From Adhaeribacter terreus (GTDB lineage: Bacteria; Bacteroidota; Bacteroidia; Cytophagales; Hymenobacteraceae): a stretch of 64,000 nt of DNA. Below are positions 5,173 through 42,637 of this stretch, piece after piece. The notes under the pieces were generated by a model, which saw only the letters and a program-made list of their open reading frames with translations, searched no databases and had not been told where the DNA came from. The stretch spans positions 454,034 through 518,033 of the forward strand of contig NZ_JBHSKT010000002.1 in assembly GCF_042657365.1 (NCBI RefSeq), written 5' to 3'. How positions within the stretch are numbered: the stretch's first letter is position 1; each line of letters opens with the position of its first letter. Position numbers and translations under genes: made by a program.

Positions 5173-8100
5173 ATGCGTAATAAACAACTATCTGGAATGC
5201 TGCTGGCACTAGGCCTAAGCTGCGCGCTGAATGTTTCGGCGCGTGAGCGGGTTGATGTTCCGGCAAATGCCGGAGGCCAGAAAAACGGCGGAAGAAATAA
5301 TAAAATTGCGGCGGCCTGCCTTACCAGCTCGTCAACTTCCTCGCTGGATATAAATAACGTTCGCGCCATGGTTCTGAATGGTGGCGATATGTGGTGGAAC
5401 CTTTCAGATCCGCGATATGAAGTACCTAAAGTAGATGATCCGAACTTACCGAAGAGACACTCTCTTTTTGCCGGTGCTGTATGGATCGGGGGTAGAGATG
5501 CTCAGAATAACCTTTATCTGGCAGCTCAGACGTACCGCCAGGGTGCTCCTGCAGATGCGGGATACTGGCCGGGTCCACTGGATAATACCGGTAATATTGA
5601 CCAGGCAGATTGCGCTACCTGGAATTATCATGCTAAAATTGATAAAGCCGTAGTAGATAAATTCCGCGAGGATTTTGGCAAGGGATTATATAATGACAGA
5701 AATCCGGACCTGTTGCCAAAAGCGATCAGAGACTGGCCTGCAAAGAAGAATCCGCATATTACTAATACGGATATGAATCATGAGCTGGCTCCGTTTGTTG
5801 ATAAAGGCGGTCCGGCTGATGAATATAATCCTTTGGATGGTGACTATCCTGATTTCCGGGGTGACCAGGGTATCTGGTGGGTAATGAACGATGCGGGTAA
5901 CGTAAAAGAGCCGCTATCGAGCACTATTGGTTTGGAGTTACAGGTTTTGGCGTTTGCTTTCCAGACGAACAACCTGATCAACAATATGACCTTCTATAAG
6001 CAGAAGCTGATCAATAAAGGCCCTAACACCCTGGAAAATACTTACCTTGGCCAGTGGGTTGACCCGGATCTTGGTTTCTATAACGACGATTTTGTAGGCT
6101 GTGATGTTGGCCGTGGTTTAGGTATCTGCTATAACGGCGATAACGATGACGAAGGTGCAAACGGTTACGGCCTGAATCCACCTGCTATTGGTGTTGACTT
6201 CTTCCAGGGACCAACCGCGGATCCAGGCGATGGTATTGATAACGACCGTGATGGCACAATTGATGAGCCTAACGAGAAGATCATCATGTCGAGCTTTATC
6301 TATTACAACAACGACAGCAACCCGACAAACGGTAACCCAAGCAGAGCTTCTGACTTTTACAATTATCTGCAGGCGATCTGGAGAGATGGTAAACAAATTA
6401 CTTTTGGCGGCGATGGTACAAACCAATCTGCCAAGCCATATAAGTTTATGTTCTCTGACGATACCGACCCTAAAGGATACGGCTTCAGCAACCCTCCAGG
6501 AAGCGAGCAACCTGCATTTAACTGGTCTGAAACTAAAACGCAGGCTTCCGGCCAAAGCTCTAATACCCCTGCTGACCGTCGTTTCCTGCAATCTGCCGGA
6601 CCGTTTACTTTGGATCAAGGAGCAGTTAACGAACTTACCATTGGTGTTGTTTGGGCGCGTGCTAATTCAGGTGGTGCCAAAGGCTCTTTAGGTCTCCTGA
6701 AAAATGCTGATGACATTGCACAAAGCCTTTTCGATAACGACTTTAAATTACCACAAGGCCCGAATGCTCCTGAACTTGCCATTTCAGAGTTAGATCAGCA
6801 GTTAGTGCTTACCCTGATTCCGCAGAAGTTCCTTACTTCTAACGACGATCAGGTTACAACGGAAACTTATTTTGAGAAGAACCAGACCTTAGAAGCAAAC
6901 GGCGCTAAAGATCCTTTCTATCGTTTTGAAGGTTATAAAGTTTACCAGCTAAAAGATCCTACTGTAACTTCTTCTGAACTGAATAACCCTGACCGTGCCC
7001 GTTTAGTAGCCCAGGCTGACCTGAAAAACGGCGTTACTGAAATCGTTAACCGTGAGTTTGATGCTGACATTAACGACTTTAAGAGTGTACTAAAGGTACG
7101 TGGTGCAGATAACGGTTTATTCCACACCATCAACGTAACTACAGACCAGTTCGCTACCGGTAACGACAGAATCGTGAACTTCAAGTCTTACCATTTCATG
7201 GTTGTTGCTTATGCTTACAATGGTGACTCTGTTAACGTAAATGATAAATATCTGGAAGGACGCGTTACGAGCTCTGGTACCGGTATTCCTCACAAGCCAC
7301 AGGTTGAAAATGGTGGTACTTTGTTAACCGCTGCTTATGGTACTGCTGCTGGTATTACCCGTATTTTTGGTGTAGGTAATGGCGGTAATGTACTTGAAAT
7401 TATGCCTGAAGATGAGCAGGACATTGTACGGAACAACAGCAAGCAGAGAATAACTTACCAGGGTGGTCATGCGCCATTCACGGTTAAAGTTTACGATCCT
7501 AAGAAAGTTGTAGGCGGTGACTTTACCGTTAAAATGTCGAGCAGACTGGTATACGCTAAATCTTCTGCATCAGGCAAACTGAACCTGAACGATACAATTC
7601 TGGCAACCGGTAACTTTACCCGTCCGGATGCTTATGACGCTACTAATTTCCCGAATACATTATCTTATCCACAGGTTCCGGGCCGCGCTATTGTGCGGAG
7701 AATTGTAAGTGTAGAACCTCTTTTAGGTGGTACAACTGCTGGCGATTCCCTGGTTACGCTGGATATTGAAATGCTGAATGACCACCTGAACGGACGATTT
7801 ACAGTGCAGATCGATGAGAACAAACTTACCGGTACAGCGCCAAATCAGACTGTGGTATTCTTCGGTTATAAAACTGAGACCAGACCATTCCGCTCTTTGA
7901 ATTCTAATTTTACTGCTGTTGCATCTGAATATGTACAGAATGACTTATGGAAAATTACGAAACCAGGCGGGGAAACGCTTTTCGCTGACAAGCCGGTGAG
8001 TATTTTCAATGAGCAACTGGTACCTGAATTCGGTATTGCACTTGAATTTAAGCATGCAACTGACCCAGGTTACCTTGTTAATGCAAATTCACTGAATGGA

Positions 8101-11409: not shown

Positions 11410-11432
11410 CTTTTGAAGCACTTTTTCAAGTC

Positions 11433-11482
11433 AAAACCCTAGCGTTTTATACCGGAATTCCAGTTAAAAACGCTAGGGTTTT
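11433..11482. repeat. 50-bp near-perfect palindrome built from two inverted copies of the intergenic AAAACCCTAGCGTTTT motif
   Basis: AAAACCCTAGCGTTTT-ATACCGGAATTCCAGTTA-AAAACGCTAGGGTTTT, sitting between convergent hinT-like and ruvC genes. Confidence 0.7.
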
Positions 11483-11533
11483 GGGCTTTAAAAGTAAAAG
11501 GTATTCTTCGCTTCTGGAATATTTCCTGTACGG

Positions 11534-26418: not shown

Positions 26419-26494
26419 TCAGAAAACGCTATACTTTTAAGCCTAAAAACTTGCAGCGCACAAAATTTATCCGTTTCTTTGCAGCCTATTAAAC

Positions 26495-26597: not shown

Positions 26598-26630
26598 CCT
26601 GTAAGTTACTGCTTACAGGATTTTCTTGCT
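26598..26630 (+). terminator. Rho-independent terminator after tRNA-Ser
   Basis: CCTGTAAGttactgCTTACAGG followed by ATTTTCTTGCTTT. Confidence 0.55.
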
Positions 26631-26740
26631 TTAAAACCATAGCGTTTTTGCTGGCTTATATTCATCATGAATTTGTAGGGAGTGAACTTTTCAAATCGCT
26701 AAATCCAACTTCGACTTTTCAGGGAAATTCAATCGTCGTT

Positions 26741-28014: not shown

Positions 28015-28260
28015 AAAAAATAAAACCTGCTAATATTTTGAGCGTATCTATTTTTTGTAGTATAATTGCAATGTAAATGTAGGAAATAAAAGGACAATAC
28101 CTGAAGCATTCGCTACTTTTTTGAGCCACGGGCCCGGCTTAAAAAATTTGCAGCGCTTTTTTAGCTCTTTCCGCTAAAAAGTTAACATGAAATTACATTT
28201 TCTTTCTTATCTTAGGAAGCGAAAATGCTCATAGAACTGACTTCGCTCTTGCGATGATTT

Positions 28261-28335
28261 TCCCCTTGAGGGGAGTTAGAGGGGTGTAAATTGCAATCGT
28301 GATAACGCCCCCTCCGGCTCCCCTCAAGGGGAGAG
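28261..28335. repeat. Inverted pair of GC-rich hairpin repeat (CTCCCCTTGAGGGGAG...GAGGGGTG)
   Basis: TCCCCTTGAGGGGAGTTAGAGGGGTG ... CCCCTCCGGCTCCCCTCAAGGGGAGAG. Confidence 0.7.
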
Positions 28336-28408
28336 AAAGAAGCAGCAACTTTATTTTGCCACCTCCCGGAATGGGAATTTGTGTTCCGAACCTTTAAAAT
28401 TTTCAAGC

Positions 28409-28843
28409 ATGAACAATCCTTACTTTGCCAAAGTGAAGGCTTATTTACAGGACCTGCACTTTCATATTTCGCATGAGAACCCGACTGATGGCGTTTTGGT
28501 GGTAGATAAACCCGAAGCTGGCATTCAGAACCTGGTAATTGGTTGCGCCGATCCGCTGCTTATTATGGAACAGCACATTCTGGATCTGCCGGTTTTAACA
28601 ACAAAAGTTTTGCAAAGTCTGCTGCAGAAGAACCGCGATATTATTCACGGCGCTTTTGTGCTCGACGAAACCGGTCGCAAACTGATCTTCCGCGATACGC
28701 TGCAACTGGAAAAACTGGACCTCTGTGAAATCGAGGCTTCTTTTAATTCCCTGGCGTTGCTGCTGAGCGAGTATTCTGAACAATTAATTGAATTTTCAAA
28801 AATTAAAGTAAACAGCTATGAACATATTCCGTCGCATATTTAA
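28409..28843 (+). CDS. YbjN/YjfI-like (putative chaperone-like) protein
   Basis: About 145 aa and overlaps the PspA start by 26 nt. This placement is typical of yjfI-yjfJ-type pairs. Confidence 0.45.
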   Translation: MNNPYFAKVKAYLQDLHFHISHENPTDGVLVVDKPEAGIQNLVIGCADPLLIMEQHILDLPVLTTKVLQSLLQKNRDIIHGAFVLDETGRKLIFRDTLQLEKLDLCEIEASFNSLALLLSEYSEQLIEFSKIKVNSYEHIPSHI

Positions 28844-29534
28844 AATAGGCCAGGCCGAAGCTCATTCCGCCATCGATCAGCTGGAAGACCCGATCAAAAT
28901 GACCGAGCAGGGAATCCGCGATATGAAAGAAGACCTGGAAAAAAGCCTGCGCGCCCTGGCCGAAGTAAAAGCCATGGCCATCCGTTCGCGCAACGATGCC
29001 GAAGCTTATCGCGTCAAATCGGATGATTACGAGCACAAAGCTATTTTGCTGTTGCAGCGTGCGCATAAAGGCGATCTGGAAACTTCGGAAGCGGACCGTT
29101 TGGCCGGCGAAGCGTTGGTAAAAAAAGAAGAAAACCTGAAACTGGCCGAACAGGCAACCGCCGATAAAGAAAAGTTTGAAAGATCGGTGCAGCAGCTGGA
29201 TCAGAACATTAAAACCCTGCGCAGCACTTTAAGCAAATGGGAAAACGAACTGAAAACCCTGAAAAGCCGTGTTATGGTAAGTAAAGCCACGCAAACCATT
29301 AACAAACAACTGGCCCAGATCGATTCTTCGGGCACAGTAGCCTTGCTGGAACGCATGAAAGAAAAAGTAGCCGTGGAAGAAGCTTTGGCCGAAAGCTACG
29401 GTGAAATTGCGAACGAAAGCCGCACCATCGATCAGGAAATTGAGAAAGCGCTGGAAAAAAGCCAGTCCCGTTCTACATCTGATAATGTTGCCGCTTTGAA
29501 AGCTAAGTTAGGTTTAACGGAAGCTTCGGAATAA
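28818..29534 (+). CDS. pspA: PspA/IM30 (Vipp1, ESCRT-III superfamily) protein
   Basis: MNIFRRIFKIGQAEAHSAIDQLEDPIKMTEQGIRDM start, coiled-coil throughout, 238 aa. Confidence 0.85.
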   Translation: MNIFRRIFKIGQAEAHSAIDQLEDPIKMTEQGIRDMKEDLEKSLRALAEVKAMAIRSRNDAEAYRVKSDDYEHKAILLLQRAHKGDLETSEADRLAGEALVKKEENLKLAEQATADKEKFERSVQQLDQNIKTLRSTLSKWENELKTLKSRVMVSKATQTINKQLAQIDSSGTVALLERMKEKVAVEEALAESYGEIANESRTIDQEIEKALEKSQSRSTSDNVAALKAKLGLTEASE

Positions 29535-29585
29535 ACCGGATCTTTGACTTTTTCGGCTTGAAAGCATACCGTTTATGGTAGCGTG

Positions 29586-29719
29586 AAAACACCCCTCCGG
29601 CTCCCCTCGAGGGGAGAATCTTCGCGATGAGTAATCTAAAACTTATAATAATAATGTATTGAAGATTCACATTAGCCGATACTCTCCCCTTGAGGGGAGC
29701 CGGAGGGGTGTTTTCACGC
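29586..29719. repeat. Inverted pair of GC-rich hairpin repeat
   Basis: GTGAAAACACCCCTCCGGCTCCCCTCGAGGGGAG ... CTCTCCCCTTGAGGGGAGCCGGAGGGGTGTTTTCAC are exact reverse complements. Confidence 0.75.
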
Positions 29720-30158
29720 TACCAAGTACATTTCAGATAATGAAGAATCCAATCATCCCATACCGGAAGGATCTGCGGGCCAAAGCCAGAGAATTGCGGA
29801 ACAACAGCACGTTGTCGGAAATCCTGCTTTGGAACGAGATCAAGAACCGGCAAATGGATGGCGTGCAGTTTCACCGGCAAGTACCCATGCTTGATTTCAT
29901 TGTTGACTTTTATTCGCATGAATTAAAAATCGCTATCGAAATTGATGGTAAAAGTCATGACGATAAAATGGAATATGATGACCTGCGTCAAAAGCAACTT
30001 GAGGCTTACGGTGTAATATTCATGCGTTTTGATGATATGGATGTGAAGCGGAATTTGCGGTGGGTGCTGGATGAAATTTGGGAACAGGTTCTGGTTCTGA
30101 AGAAGCATTTTTCCGATGAGCAGGCAAAACACCCCTCCAACTCCCCTCAAGGAGAGAG
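29681..30158 (+). mobile_element. Candidate miniature element: DUF559 gene bounded by ~33-bp terminal inverted repeats
   Basis: Left TIR at 29681-29719 and right TIR at 30126-30158 (AAAACACCCCTCCAACTCCCCTCAAGGAGAGAG) in inverted orientation. It is inserted between pspA and the nfeD-flotillin pair. Confidence 0.35.
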
Positions 30159-30168
30159 TTCGCAGTAA
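29740..30168 (+). CDS. DUF559 endonuclease-domain protein (very-short-patch-repair-like fold)
   Basis: LRNNSTLSEILLWNEIKNRQMDGVQFHRQVPMLDFIVDFY...IAIEIDGKSHD is the DUF559 signature. The annotated ORF ends are encoded by the flanking repeats (SPLEGSRRG / NSPQGES). Confidence 0.7.
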   Translation: MKNPIIPYRKDLRAKARELRNNSTLSEILLWNEIKNRQMDGVQFHRQVPMLDFIVDFYSHELKIAIEIDGKSHDDKMEYDDLRQKQLEAYGVIFMRFDDMDVKRNLRWVLDEIWEQVLVLKKHFSDEQAKHPSNSPQGESSQ

Positions 30169-30266
30169 TAACCCTAAGTTAAAGGAAAAAGTCTAGTGAA
30201 CATTTAAGAAAAACAACTATAGAATTTATAATTCATCATTAAAAATTCATCATTACCCAACTGCCT

Positions 30267-30911
30267 ATGACCGAACTTTTACAAGCTGCCGTGGCGCCGG
30301 CAAACATCATTCCTACCACCTTAATGGTGCTTATTATAATGTACTGGGTTTCGGTGATTATTGGCCTGCTGGATTTGCAAGCGTTCAATATTGAGATCGA
30401 AAAGGATTTTCACATTGATACCCACGTAGATGCGCACCATGAATTTTCGGTGGCCTGGCTCAACAATGTGCTGGCATTTTTCAACCTCGGAAGGATACCG
30501 TTTATGGTGTTCATGAGTTTCCTGGTGTTGCCGTTCTGGGTGCTGGCCATTCTTACCGTACATTACGCACCTTTTCTGCCGGCGGGCATCGCGTTTTTAT
30601 TGCTTATTCCGAATTTATTCCTGAGCCTTTTTATTGCCAAAGCACTTACTACGCCTTTCGTGAAAATGTTTGCGGCGCTAGAAAAAGAACACGACAGCAC
30701 GGTTACCATCATCGGGAAAGTTTGTACGGTTTTGTTGCCGGCAACTTCAACTGAAATGGGACAGGCTTCCGTGAAAACCGATGCGGCGCCGCTTATTCTG
30801 AACGTGAAAACCACTCGCGGTGCTACTTTGAAAAAAGGCGATACGGCGCTGGTAATCGATTATCTTCCTGAAAAACAGCTTTATTTAATAGAACCTTACG
30901 AAACAATTTAA
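30267..30911 (+). CDS. NfeD/YqiJ-like membrane protein with C-terminal OB-fold
   Basis: N-terminal TM helices and a C-terminal beta-rich TIIGKVCTVLLPA...LKKGDTALVIDY segment. It lies 4 nt upstream of the flotillin gene, like yqiJ-yqiK. Confidence 0.55.
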   Translation: MTELLQAAVAPANIIPTTLMVLIIMYWVSVIIGLLDLQAFNIEIEKDFHIDTHVDAHHEFSVAWLNNVLAFFNLGRIPFMVFMSFLVLPFWVLAILTVHYAPFLPAGIAFLLLIPNLFLSLFIAKALTTPFVKMFAALEKEHDSTVTIIGKVCTVLLPATSTEMGQASVKTDAAPLILNVKTTRGATLKKGDTALVIDYLPEKQLYLIEPYETI

Positions 30912-30914
30912 TCT

Positions 30915-33086
30915 ATGATTGCACAATTATCCTGGACTATCGTTGGCATGCTGGCGGTAATACTTTTCGGCCTCATTGCCATCGTCGTAAAAATGTACCA
31001 GAAGGCCATTCAGGGCGAGGCGCTGGTACGAACCGGTTTCGGCGACGCCAAAGTTTCCTTTTCCGGCATCTTCGTAATACCCATCATCCACAAGCTGGAA
31101 GTAATGGACATTACCCTGAAAACCATCGTGATCTCGCGTACGGGTTCGGAAGGGTTGGTTTGTAAAGACAACATGCGCGCCGATATTAAAGTGAACTTCT
31201 TTTTGCGCGTAAACAAAACCCCGGAAGACGTCATGCAGGTGGCCCAAGCTATTGGCTGTAAACGTGCTTCAGACCAACACGCGCTGGAAGGTTTGTTCGA
31301 TGCGAAATTCTCCGAAGCCTTGAAAACGGTTGGTAAGCATTTTGAATTTGTGGACCTGTACCAAAGCCGCGACGAATTTAAACGCCAAATTTTGCAAGCC
31401 ATCGGCACCGATCTGAACGGCTATGTTTTAGACGACTGCGCAATAGATTATCTGGAGCAAACACCGCTTACCGCGCTAAACGAAAACAACATTCTGGATG
31501 CGGAAGGTATCAAGAAGATCATCGACCTCACGGCGCAGCAGAAAGTCCAGGCCAATTTAATTGAGCGCGAAAAGCAGAAAACCATTAAAAAGCAGGACGT
31601 TGAAGCGCAGGAAACCATTCTGGAACTGGAGCGCCAACTTGCCGAAAACGAAGAAAAGCAGAAGCGTGAAATTGCCAACATAAAATCGCGCGAAATGGCC
31701 GAAATGGAAAAAGTGCGTTACGAAGAACGCCTGAAAGCCGAAAAAGCCCGCATTGCCGCCGACGAAGAAATTAAAGTTGCCGAGCAGAATAAAGAACGTC
31801 AGATCCTGGTGGCTGAGAAAAGTAAACTGCGCACCGATGCCGTAGAAACCGAGCGCGTAGAGCAAGCCCGCATGCTGGAAGTAAATGAACGTGAGCGTAT
31901 TGTGGCCTTGGCCCAGATAGAAAAAGACAAAGCCCTGGAAGAAGAACGCAAGAATATTCAGGCCATTATCCGCGAGCGTGTGGTGGTTGAAAAAGCTACG
32001 GTAGAAGAGGAAGAGCGTATCAAAGATACCAAAGCTTTTGCCGAAGCAGAACGTACCAAATCAGTGGCCATTAAAAACGCCGAAAAGGAAGCCGAAGAAG
32101 CGCTGGTGAAAGAAATTAAGAGTGCCGAAGCTGCCCGTCAGGCCGCCGAGTTCAGAGCCAAGCAATTGCTCATCGATTCGGAAGCGGAACAAGCTTCTGC
32201 GAACAACCGAGCCCAGGCCATAAAAATGATGGCCGAAGCGGAAGCTGCTCAAGCCGCTGCTATCGGTTTATCGGAAGCACGTGTGATGGAAGCCAAAGCC
32301 GAAGCACATCAGAAAGAAGGCGAAGCCGAAGCCGTAGTGATTGAAATGCAGGCCGTTGCAACTGCCAAAGCCACCAAAGTAAAAGCCGAAGCGCAAGCCG
32401 AAGCCGACGAAAAAGTAGGAATGGTAGCGGCTAAGATTACGAAAGAAAAAGGTATTGCTGAAGCTGTTGTGGTGGAGAATTTAGCTGCTGCTACCGAGAA
32501 AAAAGGTCTGGCCGAAGCCCGCGTAATCGGCGAGAAATTTACTGTAGATGCGCAAGGAATTGAGCAGAAAGCCGAAGCTATGAAAAAACTGGACGGCGTT
32601 GGCAAAGAGCACGAGGAATTCAAACTGCGTCTGGACAAAGACAAGTCTATTGAACTGGCGCAGATCAACATTCAGAAAGACATTGCCGCCGCGCAGGCCG
32701 AAGTTATTTCCGAAGCCCTGAAAGCTGCGAAGATCGATATTGTGGGTGGCGAAACGATGTTCTTCGACCAGATCGTAGGCTCGATTACCAAAGGCAAGCA
32801 GGTAGATCGTCTGGTTGGGAATTCCGAGGTTTTAGGGTCTGTAAAAGATACGTTCTTCCACGTAAATGGCAACGGAGAAGTAGATTTCAAAATGAACCTG
32901 CAGCGCTTCATCAACCAGTTCGGCATGAACTCCGAAGATGTTCGCAACCTCAGCGTTTCCGCCTTATTGCTGAAGATGATGACCAATGCCGATGATTCTA
33001 CTAAAGCTGCTTTGAAACAATTAACTTCTACTGCAAACGCGATGGGAATTGCTGATAAAGCGGTACATAGTTTTGGTTTGAATTAG
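30915..33086 (+). CDS. Flotillin/SPFH (band-7) family protein, YqiK-like, with long Ala/Glu-rich coiled-coil extension
   Basis: N-terminal TM plus SPFH domain (GEALVRTGFGDAKVSF...KTIVISRTGSEGLVCKDNMRADIKVNFFLRV), then about 450 aa of EA-rich coiled coil. Confidence 0.8.
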   Translation: MIAQLSWTIVGMLAVILFGLIAIVVKMYQKAIQGEALVRTGFGDAKVSFSGIFVIPIIHKLEVMDITLKTIVISRTGSEGLVCKDNMRADIKVNFFLRVNKTPEDVMQVAQAIGCKRASDQHALEGLFDAKFSEALKTVGKHFEFVDLYQSRDEFKRQILQAIGTDLNGYVLDDCAIDYLEQTPLTALNENNILDAEGIKKIIDLTAQQKVQANLIEREKQKTIKKQDVEAQETILELERQLAENEEKQKREIANIKSREMAEMEKVRYEERLKAEKARIAADEEIKVAEQNKERQILVAEKSKLRTDAVETERVEQARMLEVNERERIVALAQIEKDKALEEERKNIQAIIRERVVVEKATVEEEERIKDTKAFAEAERTKSVAIKNAEKEAEEALVKEIKSAEAARQAAEFRAKQLLIDSEAEQASANNRAQAIKMMAEAEAAQAAAIGLSEARVMEAKAEAHQKEGEAEAVVIEMQAVATAKATKVKAEAQAEADEKVGMVAAKITKEKGIAEAVVVENLAAATEKKGLAEARVIGEKFTVDAQGIEQKAEAMKKLDGVGKEHEEFKLRLDKDKSIELAQINIQKDIAAAQAEVISEALKAAKIDIVGGETMFFDQIVGSITKGKQVDRLVGNSEVLGSVKDTFFHVNGNGEVDFKMNLQRFINQFGMNSEDVRNLSVSALLLKMMTNADDSTKAALKQLTSTANAMGIADKAVHSFGLN

Positions 33087-33108
33087 GATAGCGTTTTTGG
33101 TAACATGT

Positions 33109-33324
33109 AAACACCCCTCCGGCTCCCCTCAAGGGGAGAGTATCGACTAATGTAAATAACCACCCCCAACACCTCCTTGAAAAGGAGGGGAGCTGGAAAA
33201 TGCTAAGTTCTTTTGTTTGCTTTTTTATAGCTGACTGCAGAAAACGGTATGCTTTTTCGCTCAAAAAGTCTGCTAAAAACAGTGAACCAAAAGCTCCCCT
33301 CCTTAACAAGGTGGGGTAGGGTGG
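33109..33324. repeat. Cluster of GC-rich hairpin repeats (one unit of main family plus inverted pair of a related unit)
   Basis: 33109-33144 is AAACACCCCTCCGGCTCCCCTCAAGGGGAGAG. 33160-33196 and 33292-33324 are mutually inverted (CCACCC..CCTCCTTGAAAAGGAGGGGAGCT). Confidence 0.65.
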
Positions 33325-33354
33325 TTGATTTTCAATTGCTTAAATATTTCTTAA

Positions 33355-33780
33355 ATGTCCACTTTCCGCTATAGTATCTGCGATCCATTCTCTCCGGAAA
33401 TTATTGAAAAAGGATCAATTGATAAGGCAGGCTTTTTAAAGGTTTTCCATGAATTTCCCTGGGAAGAAATGTTGCACCAAATGGAAGAAGCTGAAAACTC
33501 GGTTTCCGGGAAGGATATTCACTATTCGCCTTCTTTGGAAGTTGAGAACAGAAGCAATAAAAATGGACTGTCCATTTCAGTTGTAGATGGGAAAGATGAA
33601 CCGGAATTTTACATCTTTTATAAACGGCCTGAAATTAGAAAATACCTCTTCGGATTCATTCAGAAAATGGATGAAAACTTTGTGTCGGATAGAACAAGCC
33701 AAACCAAAGCAGATGCGCTGGCTGCCATTAATGCGCTGTTTGACAATGATCTTGCCCTACTGAAAAGCCGTTGGGGTTAA
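33355..33780 (+). CDS. Hypothetical protein (141 aa)
   Basis: Clean ORF immediately upstream of the giant ATPase; no recognisable motif. Confidence 0.4.
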   Translation: MSTFRYSICDPFSPEIIEKGSIDKAGFLKVFHEFPWEEMLHQMEEAENSVSGKDIHYSPSLEVENRSNKNGLSISVVDGKDEPEFYIFYKRPEIRKYLFGFIQKMDENFVSDRTSQTKADALAAINALFDNDLALLKSRWG

Positions 33781-42354: not shown

Positions 42355-42451
42355 TTATTTTCGTCTGTCGTTTTTTCGTTGTTCGTTATTCGATATTTAG
42401 CCCGGAGTTTTTGAGGTGTTTGGATAGGGTTTTTTCCTTATGCTTTCACTT

Positions 42452-42602
42452 TATTTGGTCATCTCGACGTCAGGAGAGATCTCATCTAGTTAGCAGAAGC
42501 CTTTATCTAGCTTTTCTACTTTATTCGGAAGATCTCTCCTGACGTCGAGATGACCAAATAACTTTCGTAGCGTAGGGTTTAAACCCTACGCTACGAAAGT
42601 TA
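42452..42602. repeat. Compound palindromic element: 28-bp perfect inverted repeat arms plus adjacent 42-bp perfect palindrome
   Basis: TTGGTCATCTCGACGTCAGGAGAGATCT at 42455-42482 is inverted at 42530-42557. AACTTTCGTAGCGTAGGGTTT|AAACCCTACGCTACGAAAGTT lies at 42561-42602. Confidence 0.8.
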
Positions 42603-42637
42603 TAGAAAACACTTTTTACGATCCAAACCCTACCGTT

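Follow-up and report, generated by a model that had tools for sequence, protein, structure and literature searches.

Triplex-type palindromic repeats enclose a DUF559 gene in Adhaeribacter terreus: a candidate mini-element with gene-less relatives

Introduction

In the genome of Adhaeribacter terreus, a 64-kb stretch of contig NZ_JBHSKT010000002.1 (hereafter the window, meaning the whole stretch of DNA that was analysed) contains a small gene of the DUF559 family that is enclosed by two inverted copies of a short hairpin repeat, and further copies of this repeat, hereafter called units, are found in the neighbouring spacers. This raises the question of whether the gene and the units belong to one element or are neighbours by coincidence, and, if they belong together, of what the gene product may do to the units. 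DUF559 is a very large family to which, to our knowledge, no role has been assigned. In E. coli, the BoxC/PIT/TMECO repeats, to which the units are compared below, have been on record since the 1990s, and they occur as nearly identical copies in hundreds of genomes.

Results

Association of the units with DUF559 genes

The reading that we favour, with modest confidence, is that the gene and the two units around it form a mini-element of about 0.5 kb with inverted unit ends and DUF559 as its sole gene, that its nuclease acts on the units, and that the gene-less copies are non-autonomous relatives. The arms at 29681-29714 and 30126-30159, which are 34 nt long and 91% complementary, enclose the DUF559 open reading frame (ORF). 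The initial annotation had described the units as terminal inverted repeats around this gene, which is true here and for most genes of this DUF559 clade; such an arrangement is seen in about 90 genomes besides this one.

A metagenome scan provided 80 loci of the clade (these and the other loci compared below are designated by L numbers), and the other ORFs in those loci served as controls. A flanking inverted repeat with a score of at least 15 within 150 nt was found for 49 of the 81 DUF559 genes, compared with 3 of the 193 control ORFs, and a perfect pyrimidine/purine hairpin lies within 150 nt of 93% of the DUF559 genes and of 9% of the controls. Up to a distance of 150 nt from the gene there are 4.3 units per kb, and at 1-2.5 kb there are 0.09 per kb, which is a drop of about 50-fold; beyond 6 kb the density is 0. 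All (-,+) unit pairs that are 251-700 nt apart contain DUF559 (34/34), no other cargo being seen among these 34 pairs. The arms exhibit at least six lineage-specific variant types, and both arms change together. A phage origin was considered and rejected, as the degenerate unit pattern was found in two contigs only, of about 4.4 kb each, in a viral scan.

Repeat units of the window

The units of the window and the gene are the following, by position and strand.

28260-28286, minus strand: unit A' (second loop TTA, hence type A), which is the left arm of an inverted doublet that contains no gene and lies upstream of a CesT-like gene
28307-28333, plus strand: unit A (second loop CCG, hence type B), which is the right arm of the 28260/28307 doublet
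29590-29616, plus strand: unit A (type B), forming with 29684-29710 a 42-nt palindrome, 98% complementary, with a 65-nt spacer
29684-29710, minus strand: unit A (type B), left terminal inverted repeat of the putative DUF559 element, ending about 28 nt before the ATG
29740-30168, plus strand: gene for a putative DUF559 (Vsr-fold PD-(D/E)XK) endonuclease of 142 aa, 100% identical to Adhaeribacter terreus protein P0001
30130-30156, plus strand: unit A variant (CCAAC linker), right terminal inverted repeat, encoding the last 13 codons of the ORF
33112-33138, plus strand: unit A (type B), perfect consensus, directly 3' of a flotillin-like gene
33161-33193, plus strand: unit B' (sister type), left arm of a conserved (+,-) pair
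33293-33325, minus strand: unit B', right arm of the same (+,-) pair

In the whole window, the 27-mer CACCCCTCCGGCTCCCCTCAAGGGGAG has five copies with at most three mismatches, at 28307(+), 29590(+), 29684(-), 30130(+) and 33112(+), and the number of matches expected by chance from shuffles is 0. A family of five units had been reported earlier; the family is real, and it comprises six units with the more diverged copy at 28260-28286(-), which shows four mismatches to the 27-mer. All of the six match the pattern CTCCCCNNNNGGGGAGNNNGAGGGG with at most one mismatch, 0 matches being expected. The units are confined to 28260-33325, with none in the other ~59 kb of the 64-kb window. They share the architecture CTCCCC-TTGA-GGGGAG-(CCG or TTA)-GAGGGG, with 6-nt stems and loops of 4 and 3 nt. 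A related inverted pair had also been described alongside the family, and its arms were found at ~33161-33325; the inverted-repeat arms proper (33165-33194 and 33292-33321) have a length of 30 nt and a complementarity of 83%, with 97 nt between them. This B' unit type directly adjoins DUF559 in locus L106.

Single units fold weakly (z about -1), and doublets form very stable hairpins (z -6 to -16): the doublet at 28250-28340 has a predicted folding energy of -25.3 kcal/mol (z = -6.3), and the palindrome at 29576-29724 one of -58.4 kcal/mol (z = -15.6). Together with its flanks, the unit at 33112 is a 61-nt inverted copy of 29665-29725 with 92% identity, and this match to the copy by the gene suggests local copying or gene conversion.

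Two other assignments of the units were rejected. Intrinsic terminators are not consistent with a hairpin that lacks a following T-run and with the weak folding of single units, and the GTAG/CGTC-tagged REP class does not fit, since GTAG is present near a few copies only and no tag is consistent. A permissive Rfam scan of the region gave only weak chance matches to unrelated families.

The genes of the region encode a CesT-like protein, PspA, the DUF559 protein, an NfeD-like membrane protein and a 723-aa flotillin-like protein. PspA, like the DUF559 protein, has a 100% identical counterpart among the NCBI proteins of A. terreus. A second intergenic motif, approximately GACTTTTTCGGCTTGAAAGCATACCGTTT, is found at 29546-29574(+) and 33242-33270(-), and also at 11420-11495, 26423-26449 and 26622-26648. 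It is kept after pspA in orthologues, is inverted within the B' spacer and is found near units in loci from metagenome-assembled genomes (MAGs); similar palindromic pairs occur elsewhere in the window. A 141-aa ORF at 33355-33780, with no match in Pfam, NCBIfam or PADLOC, lies within an insertion of about 480 bp that directly follows the right B' arm and is found in A. terreus only, as none of three orthologous loci has it. A different repeat family is present at 42451-42603, where a perfect 32-nt inverted repeat with a 47-nt spacer is directly followed by a perfect 46-nt palindrome.

The DUF559 protein and its reading frame

The protein matches the Pfam profile PF04480 over 106 of 109 profile positions (E = 2e-29, 102.1 bits, with a gathering cut-off of 20.6). 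Its closest solved relative is PDB 3hrl (E = 6e-21), and a more distant structural relative is 3r3p, the Vsr-like domain of I-Bth0305I (E = 2e-3). Residues D56, E67, H73 and D80, which are candidate acidic and histidine active-site positions, are invariant across 17 diverse homologues. No transposase domain was found in the flanked gene by profile search. Assignment to a defence system was rejected, as the PADLOC match is a weak, Vsr-like one and NCBIfam gives the generic DUF559 model only, below its cut-off.

The longest ORF starts at a TTG at 29659. Because the homologues all begin with MKNPIIPY, which corresponds to the ATG at 29740, the longer TTG-initiated ORF is an artefact. At the other end, the sequence of the right-hand unit supplies the final 13 codons (KHPSNSPQGESSQ), and the A. 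terrigena and A. soli orthologues terminate before their unit. Of the artefactual extensions that had been attributed to the units at both termini, the N-terminal one is confirmed, for the longest ORF only, whereas the C-terminal tail is derived from the unit yet lies within the real reading frame. Read-through into the unit likewise explains the proline-rich tails of many annotated DUF559 proteins (e.g. ...HPSNSPQGESSQ or ...QPSPRPSP).

The gene is under strong purifying selection, with nonsynonymous differences (pN) of 0.06-0.14, synonymous differences (pS) of 0.64-0.87, a dN/dS of at most 0.07 and saturated synonymous sites. Despite this saturation, a 30-nt unit beside the gene is identical in L019, L020 and L028, which represent three Adhaeribacter-group genomes, and genomes of Cytophagales and Flavobacteriales share an identical 25-mer of the unit. 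Either constraint or continual homogenisation must therefore act on the units, the conservation of which goes beyond the neutral expectation.

Position of the gene and units in relatives

The orthologues of A. terrigena, A. soli, Pontibacter, Rufibacter and Ekhidna, with 60-85% identity, have unrelated genomic surroundings, and the DUF559 locus differs among the three Adhaeribacter species (A. terreus, A. terrigena and A. soli). The lookup of orthologues gave, for each of them, a single place in its genome, and one metagenome locus holds two DUF559 paralogues. In the pspA-nfeD spacer, the gene is present in the window and in L028, a metagenome relative, and absent in L026 and L027. Presence and absence of the units and gene between relatives, as anticipated, is thus seen at orthologous sites. 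In A. terrigena, L028 and the window, the (-) unit ends 15-30 nt before the ATG and the (+) unit is located at or just after the stop codon; the arms of L028 form a perfect 33-nt inverted repeat.

The other units of the region differ in age. The MAG locus L026 has the 28260 doublet at the orthologous site, in L027 a single hairpin is left of it, and L028 lacks it. A fresh consensus copy is present at 33112, where three other genomes have diverged versions only at the orthologous position. The B' pair at 33161-33325 has been kept at the orthologous site of three other genomes, and hence in four genomes with that of the window. The initial annotation had taken this pair for an empty element; it is not a recent insertion but an old, conserved pair of the sister type, with a (+,-) orientation opposite to that of the gene-flanking arms.

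The DUF559-less pspA-nfeD spacers (L026 6718-7040 and L027 6718-7097) contain other hairpin families, of the GGATTTGTAATCC type and the CCCCTGGCTTCAGCCAGGGG type. As these spacers are full of other hairpin repeats, the pspA-nfeD spacer is a general hot spot for small palindromic repeats. In marine loci (L034, L041-L043, L046, L090, L092, L099 and L107), DUF559 is located at one conserved locus, with an enoyl-CoA-hydratase-like gene and a pyridoxal phosphate (PLP) threonine-dehydratase-like gene on either side; there, no stop codon interrupts the DUF559 frame, which continues across the right-hand unit and into the gene downstream.

Gene-less copies and variants of the unit

A pattern scan of representative genomes returned the exact 25-mer in 18 blocks, 14 of which come from one Cytophagales MAG. 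These blocks are all intergenic, and none adjoins DUF559. The units are thus dispersed rather than confined to the locus, and gene-less ("empty") inverted doublets exist with the same units as the gene arms, both as had been suggested from the window. Many of the gene-less copies are a recurrent composite of 190-260 bp, B(-)-A'(-)-spacer-A(+)-B(+). The A. terrigena gene lies at the centre of a B-A...A-B composite that is also found gene-less in a related MAG.

Several variants of the unit were observed. In a "C-type" unit, a nested insert of about 45 nt, with a conserved core similar to GAGCTACGCTCG and a hairpin of its own, takes the place of the C-rich hairpin arm; units of this type occur at L018 290-326, at L026 ~5440-5510, in L091 and L096 and in the upstream arm of L034, and thus in Cytophagales and marine Flavobacteriia. 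An origin of this unit as a remnant of the DUF559 3' end was rejected, as no similarity was detected. In Cochleicola gelatinilyticus (L012 6893-7409), five head-to-tail units with a period of about 122 nt alternate with a second hairpin type. The linker variants CCGG, CCAG, CTAG, CCAA and CTAA differ from each other by transitions only, TTA equals CCG with transitions at all three positions, and a stem of a type A arm with a type B arm contains T:G and A:C mismatches. This linker mismatch pattern could reflect either an unconstrained loop or selection against perfect palindromes.

Relation to the BoxC/PIT/TMECO class

The 5' C-rich block of the units is the mirror of the 5' arm of the hairpin: 34 units are mirror-only and 4 are direct-only, and at least 13 box types favour the mirror, compared with 2 that favour the direct relation. 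As the mirror relation is kept across sequence variants, it points to an intrastrand triplex design. Such a motif is defined by three consecutive triplet-capable blocks, a stem of 6-15 nt and loops of 1-6 nt (Holder et al. 2015, PMC4666352), and the window units show this block order, stem length and loop lengths, with a mirror third block. Judged by sequence, they are Bacteroidota relatives of the BoxC/PIT/TMECO triplex-type repeats. The "GC-rich hairpin family" of the initial annotation was thus made up of real repeats, and their kinship with this known triplex-motif class had been missed. Matches to the strict TMECO consensus (CCCTCNCCC N3-6 GGGNGAGGG N3 GGGNGAGGG) are limited to the loci L111, L112, L113 and L115, all enterobacterial; no Bacteroidota locus has one, so that the window units are relatives of TMECO and not members.

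BoxC was later rediscovered as PIT elements and as TMECO (PMC4666352, Holder et al. 2015, citing Hoyne and Maher 2000). According to the same source (PMC4666352), the second loops of TMECO are TTA in type A and CCG in type B, triplex folding of E. coli TMECO was demonstrated in vitro by circular dichroism (CD) and nuclear magnetic resonance (NMR) and is unconfirmed in vivo, TMECO loci are rearrangement hot spots, no mobility-related gene or activity was ever found near TMECO, and earlier work showed no promoter, terminator or expression effect of the motifs. TMECO was reported only in Proteobacteria, with Bacteroidetes unmentioned, and as absent from Salmonella (PMC4666352).

DUF559 genes next to TMECO in Enterobacteriaceae

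The association is also observed in a second phylum. In E. coli K-12, the distance from the DUF559 gene ycjD to TMECO #9 (1351204-1351239), which lies downstream of it, is about 170 nt, and the ycjD stop codon is located within a degenerate motif. A duplicated fragment of the ycjD 3' end is found between ycjD and TMECO #9 (L111 5185-5420, K-12 1351185-1351420). For the 116-nt region around TMECO #9, E. coli genomes have 1 to 29 matches each (median 15). The YcjD orthologues of Enterobacter asburiae and Kluyvera are located at two further, unrelated loci, and at each of these the DUF559 stop codon is overlapped by the TMECO pattern as published. A second, inverted motif follows in E. asburiae, and a similar motif, outside the strict pattern, is located further downstream in Kluyvera. 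No Salmonella protein was found among the best 120 YcjD matches.

Discussion

Candidate mini-element and proposed mode of action

The question raised by the locus can be answered in part. The units have a common architecture and are associated with the gene in most loci of the clade, both change position between relatives, and the units cluster around the gene. On these grounds, two inverted units would be the ends of a mini-element of about 0.5 kb, or about 0.6 kb when the outer B units are included, and the gene-less doublets, solo units and B-A-A-B composites would be its non-autonomous relatives, comparable to REPINs or to MITEs (miniature transposable elements with inverted repeats). The nuclease, which is probably dimeric, would recognise a 16-bp pseudopalindrome or a folded form of the unit and would nick or cut at the unit, after which recombinational repair would copy or homogenise the units, preferentially nearby. 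We infer this action and the copying mechanism from the layout, from the analogy with REPIN-RAYT systems and from the existence of a homodimer of the same fold with a target of similar size: I-Bth0305I, of the Vsr-like EDxHD family, acts as a homodimer on a 14-bp pseudopalindromic target (PMC3239194).

Several observations weigh against this mini-element. The link between the nuclease and the units is correlative, and the endonuclease role of the DUF559 protein is putative. A clean inverted repeat on both sides is missing for about 40% of the DUF559 genes, some of which have one arm, heterologous arms or nested insertions, and in Ekhidna and A. soli the arms around the gene are oriented differently. 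As the gene was the means of choosing the 80 metagenome loci, these are uninformative on the frequency of units without it. For the MAG with the most exact copies of the unit, the best 120 matches include no close DUF559 orthologue, which implies that the units persist without the gene or that another enzyme moves them. Likewise, all E. coli strains carry ycjD yet hold 1 to 29 TMECO copies, so the presence of the gene is no predictor of copy number. A clean empty site or excision footprint was not found, the spacers of L026 and L027 being too diverged and filled with unrelated hairpin repeats, and no target-site duplication is visible at the ends of the composites or of the marine elements.

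Alternative explanations

The chief rival, which we consider unlikely, is that DUF559 is a homing-type selfish gene which uses pre-existing triplex-motif doublets as landing sites and has no role in the spread of the units. An empty doublet would be cut and the gene copied in by repair, with the arms as homology. The fold is indeed common to the homing endonuclease I-Bth0305I, the gene occupies the exact central spacer of a doublet that is also known gene-less, and the spacer of some empty doublets resembles the 5' leader of the gene. A homing gene could also account for the differing gene loci in congeneric species and for the abundance of units in the MAG mentioned above. However, the sole sign of multiple copies is the locus with two paralogues, no second copy being present in loci with several empty doublets, and the strong purifying selection and the one stable locus across many marine flavobacteria contrast with the usual invade-then-decay cycle. 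In addition, the clustering of units in the spacers neighbouring the gene suggests that the locus of the gene is a source and not only a sink.

We regard as still less probable that neither the gene nor the units are mobile, the units being structural or regulatory DNA or RNA of the host, such as hot spots of replication or recombination or structures at mRNA ends, and DUF559 a housekeeping repair nuclease that is unit-adjacent for autoregulation. Vsr-fold enzymes are repair nucleases, and the purifying selection on the gene and the long conservation of units and of the B' pair at orthologous sites would be expected in such a case, whereas the location of the gene and its arms at unrelated loci in close relatives, and their absence from orthologous spacers, would not. 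Rearrangement hot spots and triplex formation in vitro are on record for TMECO, but so is the lack of any promoter, terminator or expression effect (PMC4666352), and the hairpin has no T-run and matches no Rfam family. Moreover, identical 25-mers across orders are hard to explain without transfer or copying.

Finally, a chance or local structure of the PspA/flotillin operon with a coincidental adjacency of DUF559, to which the confinement of the units to one 5-kb region of the window might point, is refuted by the 0 chance matches expected, by the same units in many genomes and loci, and by the replication of the gene-unit association in ~80 loci and in a second phylum.

DUF559 as a possible partner of triplex-type repeats

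Beyond the mini-element itself, we tentatively raise the possibility that YcjD-type DUF559 proteins are the missing partner enzyme of BoxC/PIT/TM repeats throughout Bacteria, or at least in Bacteroidota and Enterobacteriaceae, together forming a REPIN-RAYT-like replicator based on a Vsr-fold nuclease. The enzyme would then recognise non-B DNA, either a triplex or a doublet foldback. A T:G mismatch is the classical substrate of Vsr-type enzymes, and one may speculate that a TTA arm paired with a CCG arm would offer T:G mismatches in the stem as a substrate.

The attachment of DUF559 may explain the long-puzzling spread of BoxC/PIT/TMECO repeats by providing a candidate enzyme, and the association with the units suggests a role for the DUF559 family. 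If true, REPIN-RAYT-like organisation would extend to a second class of enzyme, and a triplex-forming DNA motif would have a dedicated protein partner, which is rare. A literature search on DUF559 with repeats, on the unit sequence and on follow-up of the triplex motif retrieved no paper linking DUF559 to the units. The repeat class is known, and its occurrence in Bacteroidota and, above all, its systematic attachment to DUF559 were not found in the literature searched.

Comparison with known systems

MITEs and their parent insertion sequences share with the present case the terminal inverted repeats, the 190-260 bp gene-less hairpin-forming copies and a gene-bearing version with the same ends. 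Unlike them, the DUF559 element has neither a known transposase fold (DDE, HUH or serine) nor a target-site duplication, and it is only ~0.5-0.6 kb long. The EDxHD homing endonucleases (I-Bth0305I, PMC3239194) are alike in their nuclease fold, in the similar-sized pseudopalindrome and in being encoded by a small, selfish-looking gene. In contrast, DUF559 has no intron, intein or extra DNA-binding domain, and it is found with its own inverted repeats, which are also dispersed gene-less.

In REP/REPIN-RAYT systems (Bertels and Rainey 2011, PMC3116915), short palindromic units, present singly and as inverted doublets, likewise flank one enzyme gene, which they far outnumber, as is probable for the present units too; there is no target-site duplication, and persistence is long. 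The enzyme is different: RAYT is a HUH Y1 (IS200/IS605-like) transposase, whereas the protein considered here is a Vsr-fold PD-(D/E)XK nuclease. The units are three-block triplex units without a consistent GTAG or CGTC tag, and the gene locus shifts between congeners. The DUF559 system is therefore not a REPIN-RAYT system with regard to its enzyme, and the comparison is an analogy of organisation only.

The units also resemble BoxC/PIT/TMECO repeats, which have the same succession of C-rich, G-rich and mirror G-rich blocks and the same two loop types, and which are also intergenic and present as near-identical copies. Close inverted pairs are heterotypic (A+B) in 5 of 5 cases in E. coli, as are 8 of 8 short doublets in this analysis; heterotypic arms as a universal rule were rejected, as gene-containing pairs are mixed. 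The stems are 9 nt long in TMECO and 6-7 nt in the Bacteroidota units, for which triplex folding is predicted. The other differences are the Bacteroidota host and the attachment of DUF559, which is observed here as well as in Enterobacter, Kluyvera and E. coli.

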